Virus record (IMG/VR): IMGVR_UViG_3300046782_000572
Reading direction: 5' to 3' (one strand)
Length of the DNA stretch: 20,000 bases
From: an uncultured virus (IMG/VR IMGVR_UViG_3300046782_000572)
Lineage: Duplodnaviria; Heunggongvirae; Uroviricota; Caudoviricetes
Position 1 is the stretch's first letter. Every line of letters starts with the position of its first letter. A program made the position numbers and the translations under genes. This document shows, piece after piece, positions 3,831 to 18,334 of the stretch. The notes under the pieces were generated by a model, which saw nothing but the letters and a program-made list of their open reading frames with translations, was not told the DNA's origin and did no database searches.

Positions 3831-3994
3831 GACTTCGGTTCCTCCATGGGGGTTGCTGGTGCCACCTTCCGCGATTTCACGGTTTAGATGACCGGACCAC
3901 CCGCCGGCGGGGAGGACCGAATCGCGGCTTGATCTCGCCTCTCACGAGCGCCCGTTGATGGCGCGGCTGCGGGTAGAACTTCCTCCCCTTTTGG

Positions 3995-4010
3995 TGTTGC
4001 ACGTGAAACA
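3995..4010. promoter_or_regulatory. parS-like ParB-binding site TGTTGCACGTGAAACA
   Basis: 15/16 match to the palindrome TGTTTCACGTGAAACA and exact match to TGTTNCACGTGAAACA; lies in likely non-coding DNA. Confidence 0.65.
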
Positions 4011-4388
4011 TCCGGGTTGTGCGGAACGACCGCACACGCCGTGGTAAGCAGCCGCCCCCGGAGTCCGTGGCAGTCCCCGGGAGCGGCCGTCCCGCGCCGG
4101 CGCCGTTGACTCGCCAGCGTAGGAAGCCTGTGGGCGCGGTTTCTGGCGCCTGGCGCCCAGGTGCGGGCGCCGCATGGGCGGGGCCTTTGGCGAAGGTGGT
4201 TCGGGCGGGCGGCGGCATTGCCACCCGCCCGCCGCGCGCCGGCTCACTGCCCGGTTAACCGGCGCTTGGCTCTTATCGGGGTGCGGTTGACACGGCCGGC
4301 GGTTCCGCTTGGCACGCGAGTCGCCGGCGAGAACAGATGCGAACGCTGGCGCCGTGGCGCCGAGAACGGATGGGGAAGCATCGGAAGG

Positions 4389-4520
4389 AAAACCCTGTAA
4401 ATAACTGTGTAACCCATTGATCTTGCTGCTATGGCGCAAATTGCGGGCTTCCGTGATCCGCCTTTTGGGCCAATGGTTTACCGGGTTTTTTACAGGGTTT
4501 TTTTTCGACGCTGTAAAAAC
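4389..4520. mobile_element. Putative attP region with arm-type repeats
   Basis: AT-rich tract just downstream of the integrase; perfect 13-bp inverted repeat AAAACCCTGTAAA (4389-4401) / TTTACAGGGTTTT (4489-4501); variant TTTACCGGGTTTT (4477-4489); CTGTAAA (4511-4517). Confidence 0.6.
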
Positions 4521-4537
4521 CGCACTTAACGCGATTC

Positions 4538-5728
4538 TCACTTCACCCTCCTGATCGCGGCGCGCCGCGCTTTCGCCTGATCGGCAAAAGCCTGATCGAG
4601 CAGGTCGGCGGCCTGATCGGCGAGCGCACGTTGATTGGCGAGCCGCACGTAATAGCTCGCCATCTGATCGGTCTGGTGACCGAGCTGGGCGCGGATCAGC
4701 GGGATCGAGCCGCCGTTGAGCGCCAGCATGATGCCGGTGTTCTTGCGCAGCCCATGCACCGTGTAGTCGCCGGCGTCGATCTCGCGCAGCACCCGCTTGA
4801 TTTGATGCGAGAGCCCGGAACGCGTGTAGGGCTTTCCCCAATGGCTGAGCAGAAGGTGTTCGCCACGCCGCGGGGTGCGCTTCAAGATATCTTGAAGCAT
4901 CTTCGGCGCCCGGATGGTGAGCTGTGCCTTGGTTTTTTTCTGCACCACTTGAATGTGGGCGCCATCGTAGTCCGCCCATTTCATCTTGATCACGTCGGAC
5001 ACGCGCTGCCCGGTGCACAGCAACAGGTGAAAGGCGAGCGCGAGCTGGTCGGAGCACGCCGCTAAGAAACGCTGCTGCACGTCGGCGGGCCAATCCTTGT
5101 GCTCCTGGCGGACGCTGTAGGGCTCCGGCACGTCGCCATCGCGCATCGGATTCTTGACGGCGCCAATGTCGATCTCGGGGAGCGTCCTGGCGAACCTCCA
5201 CAGGTTCGACAGCAATGCCTTTTGCAACGACGCGCACGACGCCGAACGATGCTTCCGCTTGATGCGGTCGATGTAGAGCGTGGCATTGCGCGGATTGAGA
5301 TCGGTCAGCTTGACCGCCGCCATGCCCTCTTCGCGCATCAGGTCGAGCCCTTTGCGGTAGTTGTATTGGGTATCGGCGGCGTAGGGCTTTTCGATCAAGT
5401 CTGGCATGTCTGGCCGCGCAAAGAAATCCGAGCGCAGCCATTGCTCGATCACCCATCCGATTGCTGGCGGCCGATAGACGTCGCGGCCATCGATACGCTC
5501 GACCAGCTTGGCGGTGTCCGGCCTCGGCCGGATCATGAGCGATGGCCTGCCACCCGGCTTTGGGTTGCCGCCGTGCTTGCCGGCGCCAAGTTCGCTGATC
5601 AGGCGGTCGTATGCGCGAGCGAATTCGATTGAGGATTCGTCATCCGGCAAGCGCTCTATGGTCTTGCCGTTGGCGCGGAAGTAGAGGTGCCCCGTCTTCA
5701 GACGTTGGATGTATTTGCGCTTCGTCAC
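4538..5728 (-). CDS. int: Tyrosine recombinase / phage integrase, 396 aa
   Basis: Catalytic motifs TGQRVSD (R), QKKT (K), HGLRK (HxxR), LGH and C-terminal YY; GTGA-coupled to the excisionase. Confidence 0.95.
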   Translation of the reverse strand: MTKRKYIQRLKTGHLYFRANGKTIERLPDDESSIEFARAYDRLISELGAGKHGGNPKPGGRPSLMIRPRPDTAKLVERIDGRDVYRPPAIGWVIEQWLRSDFFARPDMPDLIEKPYAADTQYNYRKGLDLMREEGMAAVKLTDLNPRNATLYIDRIKRKHRSASCASLQKALLSNLWRFARTLPEIDIGAVKNPMRDGDVPEPYSVRQEHKDWPADVQQRFLAACSDQLALAFHLLLCTGQRVSDVIKMKWADYDGAHIQVVQKKTKAQLTIRAPKMLQDILKRTPRRGEHLLLSHWGKPYTRSGLSHQIKRVLREIDAGDYTVHGLRKNTGIMLALNGGSIPLIRAQLGHQTDQMASYYVRLANQRALADQAADLLDQAFADQAKARRAAIRRVK

Positions 5729-5982
5729 GTGTCCCTCGCTAACAGTTCATCGATCGTGTTGCGCGGCGTTTCCGGTTCCCCCTCGTAATTCTCGATGAAC
5801 GCATCGAGCGAGAGACGGTCCCAGAACACCAAGCCTTCGAGCCGCTTCGGCTTCGGCAACCGGCCTCTTTCCACGAGTCGCAGGAACGTGCTGGTTCCCA
5901 TGGAAAGGTAGGCTGCCGCTCGGTCGGCCCGCATGGCCCGCGGTGGGTAGGCAAGCGAATCCGCCAGTTTGTGGCCCACCAC
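5725..5982 (-). CDS. Excisionase / AlpA-like winged-helix protein, 85 aa
   Basis: PPRAMRADRAAAYLSMGTSTFLRLVERGRLPKP...FWDRLSLD; directly upstream of int. Confidence 0.85.
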   Translation of the reverse strand: MVGHKLADSLAYPPRAMRADRAAAYLSMGTSTFLRLVERGRLPKPKRLEGLVFWDRLSLDAFIENYEGEPETPRNTIDELLARDT

Positions 5983-6026
5983 GCGGCTCCGGTGTATTAG
6001 GTTATTCGTGCAACCCTGACAAGACT

Positions 6027-6209
6027 TTATTTCCGATCAAGGAAACCTGCGACCTCGAACAGCTTCTCTTCGGCGTCCGCAAAGCGCCGGCTGAGGTCGG
6101 CCGGAATGCCCTGGTCCTCATGCGGCGCGGCGTCGATGCACGCCAGGAACGCCGCGCGCGCGTCGCGCCATTCGATCGCGGCATCGAGGAGTCGTTCGAC
6201 TTGCGTCAC
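6027..6209 (-). CDS. Hypothetical protein, 60 aa
   Basis: GTGA-coupled to upstream gene; GGAG RBS. Confidence 0.55.
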   Translation of the reverse strand: MTQVERLLDAAIEWRDARAAFLACIDAAPHEDQGIPADLSRRFADAEEKLFEVAGFLDRK

Positions 6210-6613
6210 AGCGGGTGCTCCGTCTGCGTCTTTCCGTTCGCCTTGCCCCGCAGTCGCGCGAGCCGCGACGCGGAAATCCGGCTCACTGCCTTGAGTCGAG
6301 CGCGCAACTTAGCGTTCGTCTCAGTCAAATATTTTGCCTCCCGGCTCGCCCAAGTACCCCAAAGGAACTCCCGCAGACTTTCATGCTCTGTGCGGACAGC
6401 GTTTTCCCATTGACCGCAATAATGGCCGGTTGTGACCTCCAACCACGCCGGGTGAAAGGTACAGGTTGCAGCGATATGCCGTTCGGTCTCTCTGATGAGT
6501 CTTCTGGCATCGTAGCGATCGTATTCCTCACCTTCGAACGTTGGTTTCCAGTCCGCCGGTATCTTGAACCTGACGTGCTTGCAGGTCAGACAGGCTTTGC
6601 GTTGTTCAGTCAC
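6206..6613 (-). CDS. Cys-motif hypothetical phage protein, 135 aa
   Basis: GTG start overlapping stop of 6610-6798; CLTCKH...TCTFHP...HYCGQW. Confidence 0.6.
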   Translation of the reverse strand: MTEQRKACLTCKHVRFKIPADWKPTFEGEEYDRYDARRLIRETERHIAATCTFHPAWLEVTTGHYCGQWENAVRTEHESLREFLWGTWASREAKYLTETNAKLRARLKAVSRISASRLARLRGKANGKTQTEHPL

Positions 6614-6798
6614 AGCTTGCCGATCTTCTCGATGGCGGCGCGCGCAATCTCGCGGGCTTCGTATTTGGTCATTGGCGTCCACGTATGACCAAACGGGTCT
6701 GGATGCGCACCGCGAAAGCCCTCGACGATGGCCTCCAATGCCTCAAGCAGATCGGGTCCGGCCTTTCTGATGCGCTCAAGCTCTTCTAGGGTTTTCAT
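6610..6798 (-). CDS. Small phage protein, 62 aa
   Basis: AGPDLLEALE...ARAAIEK resembles the common phage AAPDLLEAL motif; abuts upstream stop. Confidence 0.7.
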   Translation of the reverse strand: MKTLEELERIRKAGPDLLEALEAIVEGFRGAHPDPFGHTWTPMTKYEAREIARAAIEKIGKL

Positions 6799-7293
6799 TC
6801 AAATCCCCATGTGCTCGCGCATCACGCGGACCCATTGGGCCGGCGTTGCTTCGTCCGGCATGCCGACTTTCGTCGCGTCGAGAGCCGCCGCCATCTTGCG
6901 TATCCCGTGCAGGACCGTGGTGTGGTCCCGGCCAAAGCGCCGGCCGATTTCCGGCAAGGTGCGCAACGTCAAATACTTGCACAGCGAAAACGCGATTTGG
7001 CGCGGGGCCACGACATCTTTAGTGCGGCGCACCGATAGCAGCTTGGCTCTTTTCACTTCGAATTCAGTGCAGACCGCCCGCACAATCTCCTCGACACGCA
7101 CCGGCAGCAGCGGCGGCTCGATCGGCTCGACAGGCGGCGGCTCAGGCTCGACGCGGCGCTTGACAGGCGGCGGCGGCGGAGTCGTTCCGACCTCGGAGCG
7201 GTGGGCAAAGAAATGGTTTCGGATCGTGGCGTAGCTCGCAATCATCTCTGCCGCGCTGTGGTAGTTCGACACGTGGGCAGGGGTGCATCTCAT
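6799..7293 (-). CDS. DnaA C-terminal (domain IV) HTH-containing protein, 164 aa
   Basis: [45 protein letters not shown] matches DnaA domain IV; GGAGG RBS and ATGA overlap at 7290-7293; no AAA+ domain. Confidence 0.9.
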
Positions 7294-7493
7294 TGCAGAA
7301 CCTCCCGTTCGCTTTCGATCTCGGCGACGCGCGCCATCAAGCTCGTCATCGCAGCATCTCGATCCGCGTCGTGATGATGGAGAAACCACGCGATCATGGT
7401 CGCAAGCATGCCCTCGCGGCCGTCATCGTTGAACGGTGCCAAGATATCGCGCATGACGTCGAGATCGCGATGGACACGGCGTTCCAATTTCAT
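7290..7493 (-). CDS. Hypothetical protein, 67 aa
   Basis: ATGA overlaps at both ends; AGGAG RBS. Confidence 0.65.
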
Positions 7494-8638
7494 GACGGCA
7501 TCTCCTTCAAAAACGCGAGCGCGGCCTGGACCTCCTTCGCCATCTCGTCAGTGTCAGCCGCGGTCATCTGAGCGCCGTTGCGCATCGTTCTCGCGTTCGC
7601 CCCGGTCCACCACGTGTCGAGCATCGCGGCATCCGCGGGTTTTGCGGCGGCGATGATCTGGCGCACCAGCAGCTTGAAAGTGTCGACATCCTTGGGCGGA
7701 CGCTTCTGCGCCATGCCGATCAGATCCCCGATGGTGGGTTCTGGCTCGGCCTGCGTATGCGACTCTTCGCCGGCGTCGTGTTCGACCACAGTGCCGTCGC
7801 CGGGCCGCGGGTCGCCGGGATCATCACCGCCGCCGGCGCCGAACTGCTCAAGCGCCGCCATCGCGCTGCGCGGCTGGCGTTTGGTGACCTCCTTGCCGCG
7901 CTCTTTCGCGCCCTCGAAATCATACAATTCATCGTCTCGGTGCAAGAGCGCGTCGAGATCACTCGATGATGGGAGTTGCTTTGCGTGCCGGCGAATGACC
8001 GTTTTCTTTGCCATCTCGCCGTAGGTAACGCGGTCGTGCCACGGCCCGCCCTTTTTTGCGCGAGAGAATTTTTGCCTGATCTCCTCGACCTGGCGGATCG
8101 TCATCACTTCGCGCGACAGCGTGCCATCCTTGTACTTGCAGATCGAATAGACGTGTGTGATAGGGCGCTCGGTGCCGCCGGTCAGCGCCGGCTTATGCAT
8201 GATATGCGGCTCGTCGCCGAGCTGATAATCGAACATGTCGCCGTCGCGCACCTCGCATGCCCACAGGTCGGCGATCTCGCCAGAGTTGCGTGCCTTCTTC
8301 CGAATGCCGGCGATCATCGGCATGTAGGTGGCTTGGTCGCTGCTTTTGCGTTGACCATCTTCGCCGCTTTCGCCGAAAGGCACGATCGCAGCCTCGCGGC
8401 CGTCAGGCAGCAAGCCGTCTTGTGCGCATTTCATGCAGGAATTGAAAATGCTCTGACGCGTGCAGGCGAGCAGCTTCGCGTTGTTTTGGATTGCAGTCAT
8501 CACCACGCGCATAAAACGCTCGACCGGAATGTGAGCGGGCAACGCATAAGAAAACTGCGGCCCCATCTTTTCAAGGTCGCGCCGGAATTGATCGAGGACG
8601 CTGAGCTGCTTGCCGGCCGGCTTGGTCTGTGTATCCAT
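7490..8638 (-). CDS. recT: RecT-family single-strand annealing recombinase, 382 aa
   Basis: ALPAHIPVERFMRV...CAQDGLLPDGREAAIVPF...ARNSGEI...GPW...MAKKTVIRR; AGGAGG RBS. Confidence 0.95.
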   Translation of the reverse strand: MDTQTKPAGKQLSVLDQFRRDLEKMGPQFSYALPAHIPVERFMRVVMTAIQNNAKLLACTRQSIFNSCMKCAQDGLLPDGREAAIVPFGESGEDGQRKSSDQATYMPMIAGIRKKARNSGEIADLWACEVRDGDMFDYQLGDEPHIMHKPALTGGTERPITHVYSICKYKDGTLSREVMTIRQVEEIRQKFSRAKKGGPWHDRVTYGEMAKKTVIRRHAKQLPSSSDLDALLHRDDELYDFEGAKERGKEVTKRQPRSAMAALEQFGAGGGDDPGDPRPGDGTVVEHDAGEESHTQAEPEPTIGDLIGMAQKRPPKDVDTFKLLVRQIIAAAKPADAAMLDTWWTGANARTMRNGAQMTAADTDEMAKEVQAALAFLKEMPS

Positions 8639-8662
8639 TTTTTCCCTCCTGTTTGAGTTTTC

Positions 8663-8694
8663 GACGGTCCAGGCGCATTTGCGCGCCCGCCGCC
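8663..8694 (-). other. GC-rich hairpin at the 3' end of the pentamer array
   Basis: Minus-strand RNA GGCGG-C-GGGCGCG-CAAA-UGCGCCU-GGA-CCGUC folds into a two-part stem; shares AGGCGCAT (plus strand) with the hairpin at 11601-11630. Confidence 0.55.
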
Positions 8695-8699
8695 TTCTC

Positions 8700-9995
8700 G
8701 CCTTGCCTGGACCCGCCTCAACTCGACTTGCCTCGACCCGACAAGCCGGGCCACGCCGGCCTCACCAGACCACGCCGCCCGCGCAGTGCCACGCCGTGCC
8801 ACGCCCCGCATTGCTGTGCCGAGCAACGCCGGCCACGCCATGCCTTGCAGTCCAAGCACTGCCTCGTCGCGCCTTGCCCGGCCGCGCCGGCCGTGCCCCG
8901 CCACGCGCGGCCACGCCATCCCAGGCCTCACCGCGCCGTTCCCCGCCAAGCCGCGCCCCGCCGGCCAAGACCGCCCCGCCCGGCCTTGCCGTGCCGCGCC
9001 GCGCCACCCCCGGCCTCGCCGGCCATGCCACGCCGGACCTTGCGTTGCCGCGACCAGCCAAGCACCGTCCCGCCTCGCCGGCCACGTCTTGCCGGACCTT
9101 GCCCAGCCTCGTCTCGCCACGCACAGCCGCCGACATGCCAAGCCCGCCCCGCCTCGCCTCTGCCGGCCCTCCATGACCCCCGGCCTCGCCGGCCGCGCCA
9201 GCCCACGCCCCGCATCGCCCTGCCGGGCCTTGCCCGGCCGCGCCGGCCAAGCCATGCACCGCCTTTGCCCGTCCCGCATCGCCATGCCCCGCCGCGCCGG
9301 CCCCGCACTGCACGGCCTGGACGCGCGAGGACGCCAAGCCGGCCGCGCCAAGCCCGGCCCCAACCGAGCCGCGCCGGCCTCGCACGCTCCGCCGGGACTG
9401 GCCCACCCCGGCCAAGCCTTGCCACGCCGGCCAAGCCCTGCCTGGGCACGCACTGTTCCGCCGCGCTGTGCCAGACCGTGCCAAGCCAAGCCGAGCCGGC
9501 CCAGCCGGTGCACTGCCGGCCTCGCCAGGACGTGACGGGCCATGCCAGGGTCGGCCGTGCCAGGGCATTTCCCGCCGTGCCTTGTCTGCCGCCGGCCTCG
9601 CCGGCCAAGCCAAGCCGAGCACTGGCAGGCACAGCATCGCGTAGCCGCGCCTCGCTCTGCCGCGCCGCGCCGGGCCGGCCACGCCCTGCCATGCCAGGAC
9701 AGGCCAACGCCATGCCATGACCCGCACGGTCACGCCGGCCTCGCGCGCCATGTCCGATCCGGTCTGGCCACGGCTCGCCCTGCCTCGGCTCGCCTCGCCT
9801 CGCCTGCCGAGCCAGCCCATCCCAGGCCCGGCCATGCCGAACCCGGCATCGCCCTGCCGGGCCACGGCTGGCCTCGCCCGGTCACGCCCGGTCAGACCAT
9901 GCCTGCCTTGCCACGCCGGCCATGCCTTGCACCGCCCAGCCTGGACTTGCTCTGCAGGGACCTGCCTCGCCTGCATTGCCTCGCTGGCCATGCTG
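8700..9995 (-). repeat. Non-coding array of 5-nt GGY-NN units in about 20 segments; putative guide-RNA array (VIPR-like)
   Basis: Plus strand parses as GCC-NN/ACC-NN pentamers; 20 exact GCCGGCC 4-nt slips at 8755, 8828, 8886, 8960, 9018, 9077, 9162, 9188, 9242, 9296, 9338, 9373, 9426, 9495, 9515, 9591, 9600, 9674, 9734, 9915; clean segments spaced 5n+4 (54, 59, 69, 74 nt); directly downstream of the RAMP-like and accessory genes. Confidence 0.9.
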
Positions 9996-10000
9996 CCTCT

Positions 10001-10534
10001 TCACACTGCTTTGCCGCTGGGTCTATCGCCCGGCGGTTTGCGCCGACCGCTGCCGGGAGGCGGCGGCCGTTTTCCACGATCCAGACGTTCCCGAATTGCG
10101 AGAACGTCCGAAAGCAAGGCTTCAAATTCCCTGCTAAGATCGAGCATGTGCGCGACCTGCCGCCCGCGATCGATGCCGGCCTCAAGGCGCACAAGCTCGT
10201 TTTCGATGATCTGGCGAGCATCCGCACGGCGTTGCGCTGCTTGTGTCAGCGCAACGTAGCCACCGCCGACCGGCGAACGGGGATCGTGAACGTAGTAGAT
10301 CGCCGTCGCTGGCCGCTCGTCGATTTCGACAACGACACGAACCTCGCGGATAAGTCGTCGCGCGGTGTCGAGACGGTGCTCGTGCGCCGCGCTGGCGTCA
10401 TTCCAGTCGAAATCATCGTGCAGAAGGTGCGATGGTTCGCGCGCCGCCTCGACGACGCGCTCAGGACGCACGACGCCGTCCTTGTCGGCCAGCTTGGTGA
10501 TGGCGTGCGCCTTGGAAGCTCGCGAGCGCATCAT
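10001..10534 (-). CDS. Conserved phage protein, accessory partner of the RAMP/Cas7-like gene, 177 aa
   Basis: GVVRPERVVEAAREPSHLLHDDFDWNDASAAHEHRLDTARRLIR motif; ATGA-coupled to 10531-11544; the array begins right after its stop. Confidence 0.85.
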   Translation of the reverse strand: MMRSRASKAHAITKLADKDGVVRPERVVEAAREPSHLLHDDFDWNDASAAHEHRLDTARRLIREVRVVVEIDERPATAIYYVHDPRSPVGGGYVALTQAAQRRADARQIIENELVRLEAGIDRGRQVAHMLDLSREFEALLSDVLAIRERLDRGKRPPPPGSGRRKPPGDRPSGKAV

Positions 10535-11544
10535 GCGAACTCACCAATGGCTGGTGGGCGGCGGCCGTTTGCCTTCGCCGCCAGGGCCGCGGTTTTGCGC
10601 GGCCGTCCGGGTTTGCGGCGCTCATTGGATTCGGCTGCGGCGACCAGCTCGGGGACCAGGGATCGCGGCTTCTTGCCTTTTCTCGCGTGCCCACTCGCAG
10701 ACGACGGAACCTCCATCTCGCGGCGCCGCGTCTCGGTTTCGAACCACGCCAACAGCTCTTCCGACTCTTCGTCGTAACATATCGGCGACGCCAGCGCCGC
10801 GTCCTGGGGCTTGCGGCCCATGGTGCGCATGACCTCGGCGAACTGCTTGTCGTGCTCGTTGACCAGCATAAATTGACCGTAAGAGCCGGCTCCCTTCTCA
10901 GGGCGCCAATCGCCGACCCCCATGATGATGCCGCCCGCGCCAGCGAGGTTGGCGACATCGCGTTCCTTGATGAGGCTGCTAACGAAGCGCACCGGCAGCA
11001 CTGCGCACCACTTTTCGATGATCGCGCGGGTGCGAATGTTCGGCGTCTTGTTGATGCCGCCTTCGCGCACCACCGACATGAACAGCTTCGGCACGCCATA
11101 GATCGGGATATCAACTTCGGGGATGCTGGTGAGCTGGCCCACCGCGGTCTTGGTGGCGCCCGGGATGCGCAGCGCCGCATCGGTGATTGCGCTCTTGAAC
11201 GCGCCGGCCGGCATATGCAGGCGCGCCGCGCGGCTGTCGTCGCGAGTGCGATAGACCGACGCCTGAAACTCGGCGACCGGATCATGCTTCAACGTCGATT
11301 GTTTTTCGGCGTCGTTCTTCTTGCGGTCCGGGAAAAGCAGTTGCTGCCGCGCCTTTTCCGACATGCGGTGCATAATCAGCGGCGTAGTGCCGAGCAGATA
11401 AAACTTAACAAGCCCCATTTTCAATTCCATGATCTCGATACTCTCGGGGAGGGGCTTTTTCCCGGTCGCGAAGGGTTTTCCCGACGACCAATCAATTGCA
11501 TCCGATGTCGATGTCTTCGTTTCAGTCTTTGGCTTGCGTCCCAT
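10531..11544 (-). CDS. RAMP/Cas7-like RNA-binding protein (putative Vipr-type effector), 337 aa
   Basis: First strand LLGTTPLIMH, MPAGAFKSAI helix, RTRAIIEKW strand, Gly-rich loop GVGDWRPEKGAGSYGQF; AGGAGG RBS at 11551-11556; no other cas genes in the window. Confidence 0.8.
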   Translation of the reverse strand: MGRKPKTETKTSTSDAIDWSSGKPFATGKKPLPESIEIMELKMGLVKFYLLGTTPLIMHRMSEKARQQLLFPDRKKNDAEKQSTLKHDPVAEFQASVYRTRDDSRAARLHMPAGAFKSAITDAALRIPGATKTAVGQLTSIPEVDIPIYGVPKLFMSVVREGGINKTPNIRTRAIIEKWCAVLPVRFVSSLIKERDVANLAGAGGIIMGVGDWRPEKGAGSYGQFMLVNEHDKQFAEVMRTMGRKPQDAALASPICYDEESEELLAWFETETRRREMEVPSSASGHARKGKKPRSLVPELVAAAESNERRKPGRPRKTAALAAKANGRRPPAIGEFA

Positions 11545-11600
11545 CTGGTTCCTCCTGTGGGGTGCGCGTGATCGAGTCGCCTCACGCTGGCGTTATTAGC

Positions 11601-11703
11601 GGGCAGAGGCGCATCACTGCGGCTCTGCCCAACGCGGGGCCTAGACATGTCAGGCCGTGACAGGCCAAGCCCCGCCCGGCACCGCCTAGCCTCGCCACGC
11701 ATT
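11601..11703 (-). ncRNA. Orphan GGY-NN unit (13 in-phase pentamers) plus 3' hairpin
   Basis: 11639-11703 reads gccTA gacAT gtcAG gccGT gacAG gccAA gccCC gccCG gcaCC gccTA gccTC gccAC gcaTT; hairpin GGGCAGAG-g-CGCA-tcac-TGCG-g-CTCTGCCC at 11601-11630. Confidence 0.75.
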
Positions 11704-12642
11704 TCATTCTGCATCCTCCTTAAGCCGCTGCGTTCTCAGCACGCGAAAACTAGTCGCGGCCTGCAGGCGTTCTTTTCTGTGAGCAGTTTTCAAACTGACG
11801 CGCCAACCGTGGATCAGTGCGGCTTCGAAATCGCCGATCTTGTCTTTCAACTCTGTTTCCGCCTCAACCTTGGCGGCTTCAGCCTCTCTGATGATGGCGG
11901 CCTGCCGTTCGCGTTCCTCGAGAAGGAAAGCCGCGCGATTGTCGCGTGTCAGATCGATGATCGAGCCCTCAACCTCGCGCGGGTAGATCAAGCGCAACAG
12001 ATCGCCGTCGCGGCTGAAATCGAGTGCTGGCACGACGCCGGCTGCAACAGCATCCCAGAATTGCTTAACGGCGACGCGAAGTTTGTGCTCGGTCGCCTTA
12101 TGCCGCGGAATCTCGGCGATGTACGTATCCCAAGCAAAGTCGCCGACGACGAGCACGGCGACAGCGCCGAAGGCAGCGTCCGCGAGCATCATCTCGGTGA
12201 GGTTTTGCAAAACGATCCAGAGCGGCGGCGTGGGCTCGTCGTCGTCTTCGCCGAGCCATTTCTTCGCAAACGCTCGCGGGTTCACGGTTTTGGTCTGCAG
12301 CACGCCCGGCCCGCGCGGATCGCCTTGGATGACGAAGTCTGGGGTGCAGCCAAGCCGTGCGTGCGGATCGCGTAGATATTCGGTGTTTTTGACGACGTTC
12401 CATTCGGGCCGCAGCTTCGCGACTTTGGCGCCGATGAAGTCTTCCAAATCGTTGCCGCGACGAACGACGCTCGACTCCGGGTTAGGTCCGGGCAGCTCCA
12501 AGCCGCACTTCTCGGCATGCAGACCGGCGATGGTCTGCCAGGGATGCACGCCGAACAGCGCGCCTACTACGGACGCCGTCACGTCATTGCGGCGCAAGCC
12601 GAGCCACTGTTCGCGTGAAGTGATTGGAATCCGCTCGATCAT
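11704..12642 (-). CDS. YqaJ-like viral recombinase exonuclease (lambda exonuclease family), 312 aa
   Basis: REQWLGLRRNDVTASVVGALFGVHPW...RRGNDLE...LGCTPDF...LQTKT; partner of RecT. Confidence 0.92.
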   Translation of the reverse strand: MIERIPITSREQWLGLRRNDVTASVVGALFGVHPWQTIAGLHAEKCGLELPGPNPESSVVRRGNDLEDFIGAKVAKLRPEWNVVKNTEYLRDPHARLGCTPDFVIQGDPRGPGVLQTKTVNPRAFAKKWLGEDDDEPTPPLWIVLQNLTEMMLADAAFGAVAVLVVGDFAWDTYIAEIPRHKATEHKLRVAVKQFWDAVAAGVVPALDFSRDGDLLRLIYPREVEGSIIDLTRDNRAAFLLEERERQAAIIREAEAAKVEAETELKDKIGDFEAALIHGWRVSLKTAHRKERLQAATSFRVLRTQRLKEDAE

Positions 12643-12663
12643 GGGGGAACCTGTAAAGACGCC

Positions 12664-12695
12664 TACAGGGTTTTCCTAAAACGGAAGCTTGTCAA
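12664..12695 (-). promoter_or_regulatory. Putative leftward early promoter
   Basis: TTGACA on the minus strand (12690-12695); weak -10 (AACCCT) at 17-bp spacing; overlaps the TACAGGGTTTT motif. Confidence 0.4.
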
Positions 12696-12863
12696 CTAAA
12701 AACCGGAATGTAAGCTATGGCTGCGCCGATAGATAACACTAGCGATACTAGAGTTTGTGAAATTTGCTTGTGCTCGCAGCGGCATAGATTTCTTTCTTCC
12801 AAATATGGAAACAACGACTGCGAGTAATATTAAAAACCTCGTCCCGGGAATAACTCAAAGCGC

Positions 12864-17421: not shown

Positions 17422-17521
17422 TGGCCCGCATCCGCAGCATCAATGAATGGACACGGCGCTATCGATTGGAGAGCCCGATCGGGTTCATGGAGGCACAAGG
17501 AACGCCGTTAGGTGGTGCGCC

Positions 17522-18334
17522 ATGAATCGCTGGTTTCGGGTTTACGAAAACCTTCTCGACGACCCGAAGGTGCAACGTCTGCCCGGAGAGCTGTTCAAAA
17601 TGCTGCTGAACTTATGGTGCCTGACTTCTCGAAACGACGGTTTTCTGCCACCGCTAGACGACATTGCCTTTGCCGTTCGGCTCGATCAAAGCGACTGCGA
17701 TAATGCTCTGAAAGAATTGCAAAAACGTGGATTGATCGACAACGCTTCGGGGCGGCTCAAGCCGCACAATTGGGAGGGACGCCAATTCAGAAGCGACGTT
17801 TCAACAGAGAGGGTTAAGAAGTTTCGGAAACGAAAACGAAACGGCAGCGAAACGGCGAGTGAAACGCCCCCAGAGAGAGATACAGATACAGATACAGATA
17901 CAGATACAGAATCAGAGGGAAGAGAAAGAGTCGCGCGCGCGACCCCCCCTGAAACGTTTCACTGGCCGAAAAACTATCGGAAGCAGTTCGAAGATGTGTA
18001 CCCGGTGCAGCGGGGAATGGCTGCTGGTTTGGCCGCCCTCGAAAAGGTCAAAGGGAAAGTATCGTTTGAATTTCTGCTTGGCCAAATACGCAAATACGAA
18101 GCAGCAAAGCCGCCAGACCGCGAATGGCTGAATCCAAAAACCTACCTCGAACAGGAGCGGTGGAATGACAAACCAGCACGCGCCAACGGCAAGCACGAGC
18201 GCCATGTCGCCGACGAACTCGCCGAGGAAGCTCGCCGATTTGAGAGCCAGAGTAGCGGCGCGGCTGTCCGTGTCGGAGGCGCTGAACTTGGTGGGGATCA
18301 TGCTCAAGTCGTACCCGGCAACAAACCAAGCTGA
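17522..18334 (+). CDS. Phage replication initiator protein, 270 aa
   Basis: WFRVYENLLDDPKV...STERVKKFRKRK...DTDTDTDT linker...YP...NPKTYLEQERWND; AGGTGG RBS. Confidence 0.8.
   Translation: MNRWFRVYENLLDDPKVQRLPGELFKMLLNLWCLTSRNDGFLPPLDDIAFAVRLDQSDCDNALKELQKRGLIDNASGRLKPHNWEGRQFRSDVSTERVKKFRKRKRNGSETASETPPERDTDTDTDTDTESEGRERVARATPPETFHWPKNYRKQFEDVYPVQRGMAAGLAALEKVKGKVSFEFLLGQIRKYEAAKPPDREWLNPKTYLEQERWNDKPARANGKHERHVADELAEEARRFESQSSGAAVRVGGAELGGDHAQVVPGNKPS
17795..17961. repeat. Putative origin iterons (GAAACG) and (GATACA)5 inside the initiator gene
   Basis: Clustered GAAACG copies at 17827-17866, TGAAACGTTTCA palindrome at 17950-17961, GATACA x5 at 17879-17908. Confidence 0.5.

Follow-up and report, generated by a model that had tools for sequence, protein, structure and literature searches.

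Genomic setting

Between the recE-like and recT genes of an uncultured soil prophage (Caudoviricetes; IMG/VR record IMGVR_UViG_3300046782_000572) lies a tract of about 1.3 kb built of degenerate pentamers. Is this tract an array of guides, and at what is one of its units, at 9604–9678, directed? The DNA analysed here is a stretch of 20,000 nucleotides of that record, hereafter the window. We propose that the unit is probably a guide of a Viral Interference Programmable Repeat (VIPR) system of the prophage, silencing the Arm-DNA-bind_3 integrase of a rival mobile element.

VIPR is taken here as set out in the available parts of its first preprint (bioRxiv 10.64898/2026.04.26.720920). A small RAMP protein, Vipr, binds vrRNAs of 9–16 YNNGG repeats, whose variable NN form pairs with double-stranded DNA. 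Between one dinucleotide and the next a single target base is passed over, usually the one at the codon wobble. In nature these systems are directed at competing phages and satellites.

A probable guide unit complementary to an integrase catalytic motif

On the plus strand, positions 9604–9673 read GCCAA GCCAA GCCGA GCACT GGCAG GCACA GCATC GCGTA GCCGC GCCTC GCTCT GCCGC GCCGC GCCGG. These are 14 pentamers in phase, with the final dinucleotides AA AA GA CT AG CA TC TA GC TC CT GC GC GG, exactly as an earlier note on this DNA had read them. That note had also proposed that they encode the box II of the integrase of a rival element. Its dinucleotides stand; strand and extent could be refined. The sense strand is the minus strand, and the natural unit has 15 pentamers, the additional one being CCGGC at 9674–9678, so that the unit spans exactly from one GGCCGGC junction to the next. 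On the RNA strand its NN are CC CC GC GC AG GA GC TA GA TG CT AG TC TT TT, and the complementary target reads AAx AAx GAx CTx AGx CAx TCx TAx GCx TCx CTx GCx GCx GGx GG. The reading of the earlier note was, knowingly or not, that of the VIPR code as the preprint gives it (NN pairing, wobble skipped).

The target pattern used for searching consisted of 12 dinucleotides with one base skipped between them; full scores were taken over all 15 dinucleotides (30 bases). The 12-dinucleotide pattern matched two metagenome contigs (L028 and L029) exactly, with 24/24 bases each, and 26/30 over the full unit. Both matches lie in frame in integrase genes and encode HDLRHSYASLAAG / DLRHSYASLAAG / HDLRHSYASLAAGRG (H-D-L-R-H-S-Y-A-S-L-A-A-G-R-G). 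The earlier note had asked for at least 10 of the 12 dinucleotides in an integrase gene; all 12 were found in these two genes, with the peptide it had predicted, and three further genes agree at 21 of 24 bases (see below). Judged by sequence, the unit is complementary under the VIPR rule to the coding strand of box II (H-D-L-R-H-S-Y-A-S-L-A-A-G) of Arm-DNA-bind_3 integrases.

The integrase of L028 has 418 aa, with Arm-DNA-bind_3, SAM_3 and Phage_integrase domains (PF00589, E 1.4e-23). The matched site encodes H-D-L-R-H, an HxxR motif 32 codons upstream of the RYAHL tyrosine, which we take to be the box II of tyrosine recombinases, with its catalytic roles. Domains and motif point to a tyrosine recombinase matched at its HxxR box II as the target gene. 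In L029 (1267–1313) the integrase frame breaks just before the site: one open reading frame (ORF; 341–1285) ends there and the site falls in another (1267–1509), from either a frameshifted gene or an assembly error.

Skipping one base between dinucleotides gave 26/30 on the exact target, and skips of 0, 2 or 3 bases gave 18–19/30. This is consistent with recognition by a one-base skip, in which the skipped bases fall on the codon wobble.

Near-matches, with at most three mismatches, were sought in a sample of 401 genomes from the order to which one Vipr-bearing genome (Anderseniella sp.) belongs. Three of the 401 matched (L025–L027, 21/24 bases), all at integrase box II, and the reversed pattern matched none. 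The three sites, RLHDLRHSYASIVASGG, RIHDLRHSFASVAAGAG and RIHDLRHSYASTAAAGG, score 24–25/30. At the same threshold, four genomes with the loci L012, L018, L019 and L023 gave no match. Two of the near-match integrases were scanned for domains, and both have Arm-DNA-bind_3, SAM-like and Phage_integrase (PF00589) domains. One stands at the edge of an island with type I restriction-modification genes hsdS/hsdM (L030, 2669–5313), the other at the edge of an island with Druantia DruA and a kinase/ORC-CDC6-like protein (L031, 1449–5456). Accordingly, the targeted element may be an island or satellite with defence genes and not a prophage.

The prophage itself is not the target, because its own integrase reads HGLRKNTG at box II, as the earlier note had pointed out. 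In addition, no site in the window outside the arrays reached 17/20 with any sub-window of the array.

Chance and controls

A likeness to a famous motif could be noticed by chance even in a genuine VIPR array. The array offers ~250 windows of 12 pentamers, the reading is free to choose among K/N, D/E, R/S and H/Q, and the A, S, L and G part comes cheaply given the array composition. At 21/24 bases, an estimated ~0.7 random matches are expected in 401 genomes. The exact matches are another matter: there are two at 24/24, both in frame at the same catalytic motif, where ~1e-5 would be expected. The latter estimate combines the chance that one window equals one given 12-dinucleotide string (~6e-15, from the dinucleotide frequencies of the array) with ~250 windows and up to 1e7 integrase sites; allowing for a thousand other recognisable motifs brings it to ~1%.

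The permuted controls agree with this. For the two exact targets, the guide was permuted by unit and by base, 2000 times each, and 500 Markov surrogate targets were made. No score in these sets exceeded 22/30, compared with the observed 26/30, so the shuffled guides that the earlier note had named as its possible undoing did not match equally well. The best score in 238 kb of decoy DNA was 19/30. Among the 52 ten-pentamer windows of the array, only those of the guide unit match L028 and L029. All three near-matches fall at box II and the reversed pattern has none. A coincidental likeness is, in our judgement, very improbable.

The pentamer array

The fraction of bases equal to the base five positions further on was 0.61 in 9601–9700 and 0.43–0.61 across the array, compared with 0.17–0.31 in the flanks outside 8700–10000. 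Tandem Repeats Finder reported many short arrays of period 5, 10 and 15 across 8690–10000. The G + C content of the array is 69–83%, with more C than G on the plus strand. Because the operon around it runs on the minus strand, the array is read on that strand, as NN-GGC.

Every 20–180 bases, the pentamer phase slips by −1. The slips are explained by the junction GGCCGGC, which occurs 18 times in the array, each time as a step of four bases. Six in-phase units of 11–15 pentamers each comprise 78 pentamers in total. In these, positions 1–2 take all four bases, G stands at position 3 in 64 and at position 4 in 71, and C at position 5 in 71. A largely kept GGY, variable NN and tracts within 9–16 repeats are what the YNNGG repeats of VIPR would look like.

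Around the 18 junctions we found no invariant structured 3′ tail, the only common sequence being GGCCGGC G.GGC. The array is therefore not of the tailed type II architecture, which we do not count against VIPR as such. Seven VIPR types are described in the available text, among them tail-less "staggered arrays" with vrRNAs overlapping by 1 nt (bioRxiv 10.64898/2026.04.26.720920).

GGCCGGC holds the palindrome GCCGGC; there are 18 copies in the 1.3 kb of the array and three in the other ~1.8 kb examined, with G.GGC conserved after it. The junction may be the processing site of a staggered array. The string TCGGC TTGGC TTGGC is present twice, at the 3′ end of the guide unit (9604–9618) and at 9480–9494, near the 5′ end of the unit 9499–9430, which suggests that the array grew by segmental duplication.

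Contigs with the VIPR locus came from 24 DNA runs of soil and rhizosphere. Unit-sized insertions and deletions occur in the array: 159 additional bases near 9688–9694, adjoining the guide unit, in three runs, and a loss of 125 bases (9226–9350) in one. Such changes are the behaviour expected of a guide array.

The same DNA could in principle be protein-coding. A minus-strand ORF at 8762–9991 would give a protein of 409 aa with G-x-A-[R/W]-x pentapeptide repeats. It fits the operon spacing, with its ATG 10 bases after the vap stop, and GGCNN read three times yields a five-residue repeat. Long ORFs are, however, present on both strands (409, 347 and 261 aa on the minus, 363, 249 and 188 aa on the plus strand), as a stop-free GC-rich repeat would give, and no Pfam or PHROG family was found for the product. 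The 18 phase shifts of −1 make no sense for a reading frame, the 125-base deletion is not a multiple of three, and the arrays of relatives are short and intergenic. We give this explanation almost no credence. Besides the pentapeptide-repeat protein, a G-quadruplex or R-loop tract, a TRAP-like RNA-binding site, a Chi-like decoy and a promoter array were considered for the tract and dropped.

Further pentamers stand upstream of vipr (Table 1). The repeat family D3 links them to the array, and the run is a candidate single vrRNA; the hairpin just after it may be its tail or a terminator. Rfam gave only a sub-threshold sX9 hit (26.2 bits, gathering score 44), and no hammerhead ribozyme.

Vipr, Vap and their relatives

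The predicted Vipr is a member of a large, unnamed family without a Pfam domain, with 1333 proteins at E ≤ 0.001, mostly of 253–300 aa. Its AlphaFold2 model, from a 42-sequence alignment, has a pLDDT of 82.7. In a Foldseek comparison of the model with the PDB the top matches were Csm3, Cmr, type VII Cas7 and Cas7-11 (best E 8.7e-6; 60 rows at E ≤ 0.001), and among the matches listed all are CRISPR Cas7-type RAMPs. The model thus predicts a RAMP fold for Vipr.

Invariant in the family are G209, G211, D212 and R214 of the "GVGDWR" segment, a GxGD(W)R loop. This loop resembles the guanine-binding G-loop of the solved Vipr, a correspondence that we infer and that is not one of aligned residues. 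In that cryo-EM structure, as far as it is described in the available text, the D177-W178-R179 loop holds two guanines, and G1 is read by H17 and D177.

An alignment-based scan of genome contigs identified 16 other loci with a vipr homologue; scanning the same contigs with the single Vipr protein found no relative. Same-strand chains of at least five in-phase GGY pentamers lie beside 15 of the 16 homologues, and antisense chains beside none. A vap homologue adjoins the vipr homologue at 13 of the 16 loci, and the place of vap beside vipr is that of a VIPR accessory gene. The Vap model (pLDDT 85.6) matched nothing in the PDB at E ≤ 0.001; its weaker hits are winged-helix DNA binders, which only hint at a DNA-binding fold.

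In the phage collection there was no protein match to Vap, no DNA match to 7000–12700, and only distant matches to RecT, all below 60% identity. Through RecT (58% identity) two related IMG/VR loci were found, L006 and L007, the second identical to the first. The 213-aa protein encoded in L006 shares 27% identity with the Vipr of the window over 190 residues (E 1.3e-7) and has a glycine-rich C-terminal loop. Within 3921–8609, L006 has 13 in-phase chains of GGC pentamers, of 4–18 units (ten of them with at least 10). They lie after RecT, in at least six gaps between genes. Two runs are found in most of these gaps, all on the sense strand, and every run is closed by a conserved tail, AGGGATACTTT(T)G..GATT. 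The 213-aa Vipr-like gene (5383–6024) and a ParB-like gene are flanked by such gaps. It is unusual for vrRNAs to be scattered over a whole operon in this way.

Degenerate pentamers and other points against the guide

Several observations weigh against a working guide at 9604–9678. Canonical NNGGY is found in nine of the 15 pentamers (in eight of the 14 first noted, read on the minus strand). The other six (AGAGC, TACGC, GATGC, TGTGC, CTGCC and AGTGC) lack the full GGY, five keeping xGC and one having GCC, and it is these six that supply the "LRHSY" part, the most informative of the match. They could inactivate the unit, because changes to GGY abolished silencing in the type II VIPR studied, according to the available preprint text (bioRxiv 10.64898/2026.04.26.720920). 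The two units at the 3′ end of the guide (AA AA) and its first unit do not fit the target, which leaves the score at 26/30 and not 30/30.

Several searches also came back empty. In the viral collection, the exact 12- and 10-dinucleotide patterns had no match. With at most two mismatches there was none in 401 genomes sampled from the class, where the control also had none. The five other in-phase units did no better than shuffles on L025–L027, and two other guide patterns were absent from the viral contigs and from the three genomes with near-match integrases. Since no other unit of the array found a target, the convergent targeting of the published systems is absent here. The chance expectation for the metagenomes is a calculated estimate, and no RNA run is listed among the 24 runs with the locus.

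These points could be reconciled with the match if the unit were a relic: box II complementarity would be real, from a former guide or a duplicate, and the loss of GGY in these six pentamers, consecutive or close together, would now prevent Vipr assembly, leaving no silencing. Degeneracy speaks for this, with only nine of 15 pentamers canonical and the whole array far more degenerate than the clean 10–18-unit arrays of L006/L007. So do the reading of G1 by H17 and D177 in the solved Vipr, together with the silencing lost on GGY changes, and the other units for which no target was found. On the other hand, the 12 dinucleotides are still perfect, also inside the degenerate pentamers, where drift would have eroded them too. 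Of the six exceptions, five retain G2 and Y3 (NNNGY, with C as the last base), which is the YNNNG pattern of natural vrRNAs; vrRNAs are often internally degenerate, and YNNNG is among the natural repeat variants given in the available text (bioRxiv 10.64898/2026.04.26.720920). The unit also shows no change in two further runs whose contigs span it (X11 and X15; four runs were compared, with no differences listed for the unit where covered). A relic is unlikely in our view, and a guide directed at the integrase of a rival remains the probable explanation.

Phage context

On the minus strand the genes are ordered RecE/YqaJ-like exonuclease, vipr, vap, array, RecT, DnaA-C-like helix-turn-helix (HTH), excisionase-like HTH and integrase. 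The plus strand carries, from 12757, HNH/RuvC, ParB-like, methyltransferase and replication genes. The coordinates of the main features are collected in Table 1. No tRNA was found in the window.

Table 1 Features of the VIPR locus and its surroundings in the window.
Feature	Position	Strand	Description	Basis
Phage's own tyrosine integrase	4538–5728	−	box II YTVHGLRKNTG	
RecT	7490–8638	−	downstream of the array, same operon	
Staggered vrRNA array (predicted)	8690–10000	−	~1.3 kb of degenerate NN-GGY pentamers	periodicity, junctions, pentamer composition
vrRNA guide unit (predicted)	9604–9678	−	15 NN-GGC pentamers, read from 9678 to 9604	GGCCGGC junction at both ends
vap	10001–10534	−	accessory gene, 177 aa, phrog_15946	overlaps the end of vipr; homologues beside vipr homologues
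vipr	10531–11544	−	predicted RAMP-fold protein, 337 aa, phrog_4652, G-loop GVGDWRPEKG	predicted structure, homology
Hairpin	11601–11630	−	GGGCAGAG ... CTCTGCCC, just after the upstream run	read from sequence
Upstream pentamer run	11639–11698	−	12 pentamers, 8 canonical; candidate single vrRNA ahead of vipr	sequence reading; repeat family D3 links 11646–11700 to the array
RecE/YqaJ-like exonuclease	11704–12642	−	upstream of the VIPR locus	

Elsewhere in the window, a replication-initiator-like gene (17447–18334) contains a perfect tandem repeat of AGATAC, 5.5 copies at 17878–17916, which may be origin iterons. Two adjacent minus-strand genes within 1581–2811 each have a DUF3846 domain.

Proposed mechanism and meaning

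Beyond the anatomy of the locus, the predicted RAMP fold and the match at the level of the code, the steps of the mechanism are modelled on the three VIPR preprints. The minus strand would be transcribed in an early-left operon. Copies of Vipr would bind one per pentamer, hiding each GGY and presenting the NN, as in the published mechanism. The NN would then pair with double-stranded DNA at the integrase box II, skipping every third base (the codon wobble), and binding would block transcription of the integrase upstream of the codon for the catalytic tyrosine. In the same host, a competing island or satellite would stay integrated, unable to excise or spread during the phage infection, and silent mutations would offer it no escape. 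In this way the phage probably disables a competing mobile element.

A single guide could even silence a family of integrases, because only codon positions 1 and 2 of a near-universal box II are read. It is possible, though rather doubtful, that the unit is such a broad-spectrum weapon, silencing the whole Arm-type integrase family and freezing defence-carrying islands or satellites during infection. If true, the relaxed-GGY pentamers would show that this Vipr clade tolerates NNNGY. In any case the unit is a natural experiment on how far vrRNAs tolerate degeneracy of GGY.

What is described here is a natural target predicted for a soil phage whose Vipr belongs to a distant clade; the match covers 12 codons of the catalytic motif of tyrosine integrases and is exact. 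The targeting of recombinase active sites, where silent mutations would be of no help, would thereby be extended beyond one serine recombinase to the integrase family most common in islands and satellites. The prediction is simple to test, with one guide of 75 nt and one site of 36 bp.

Comparison with known systems

The natural VIPR targets reported so far, as far as the available parts of the 2026 preprints go, are those of E. coli and Pseudomonas phages, plus two types of defence island by database match. A full-text literature search for "vrRNA" and "integrase" returned only the SUSP1 competition paper. The word integrase is absent from the text and the supplement PDF of the first VIPR preprint, and recombinase from the supplement as well, the data tables with the target lists lying outside this comparison. 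As far as could be searched, box II of tyrosine integrases is a new target prediction, made here for a distant Vipr clade. VIPR itself, the code it uses, staggered arrays and the targeting of recombinase active sites were already known.

The locus shares with published VIPR systems its place in a phage, a small protein of predicted RAMP fold, an adjacent accessory gene and same-strand YNNGG arrays with variable NN. The guide likewise skips one base at the codon wobble and has its target, here a predicted one, in another mobile element. As differences, no invariant 3′ tail was found, and the array is a continuous tract of 1.3 kb with four-base steps at GGCCGGC junctions and high pentamer degeneracy. 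It fits the "staggered arrays" with 1-nt overlap in the legend of fig. S18 of the first preprint (bioRxiv 10.64898/2026.04.26.720920). The run of 12 pentamers with its hairpin ahead of vipr is like the single upstream vrRNA of some loci described in the available text of the same preprint. The relatives L006/L007 also have sense-strand NNGGC arrays beside a Vipr-like protein (213 aa, 27% identical), but theirs are clean arrays of 10–18 units, scattered between genes and with a conserved tail (AGGGATACTTT...GATT), which is the published type II architecture.

The best matches to the predicted fold of Vipr are backbone proteins of class 1 CRISPR-Cas systems (Cas7/Csm3/Cmr4), and in both one protomer is placed per short RNA period. 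Unlike in these systems, the window has neither a CRISPR repeat-spacer array nor cas genes, and the guide information lies in dinucleotides instead of a contiguous spacer.

The closest parallel is SUSP1, whose vrRNAs were shown experimentally to target active-site codons of a satellite serine recombinase, according to the available text (bioRxiv 10.64898/2026.10.15.759431). Its Vipr is of ~20 kDa, whereas the one in the window has 337 aa. In SUSP1 the target is residues 79–84 of a serine recombinase of an E. coli satellite, tested in experiments; here it is box II of a tyrosine integrase, predicted for a soil phage with a distant Vipr. In both, a phage guide lies on codons of the catalytic core of a rival's recombinase, so that only a change of amino acids in the active site would allow escape.

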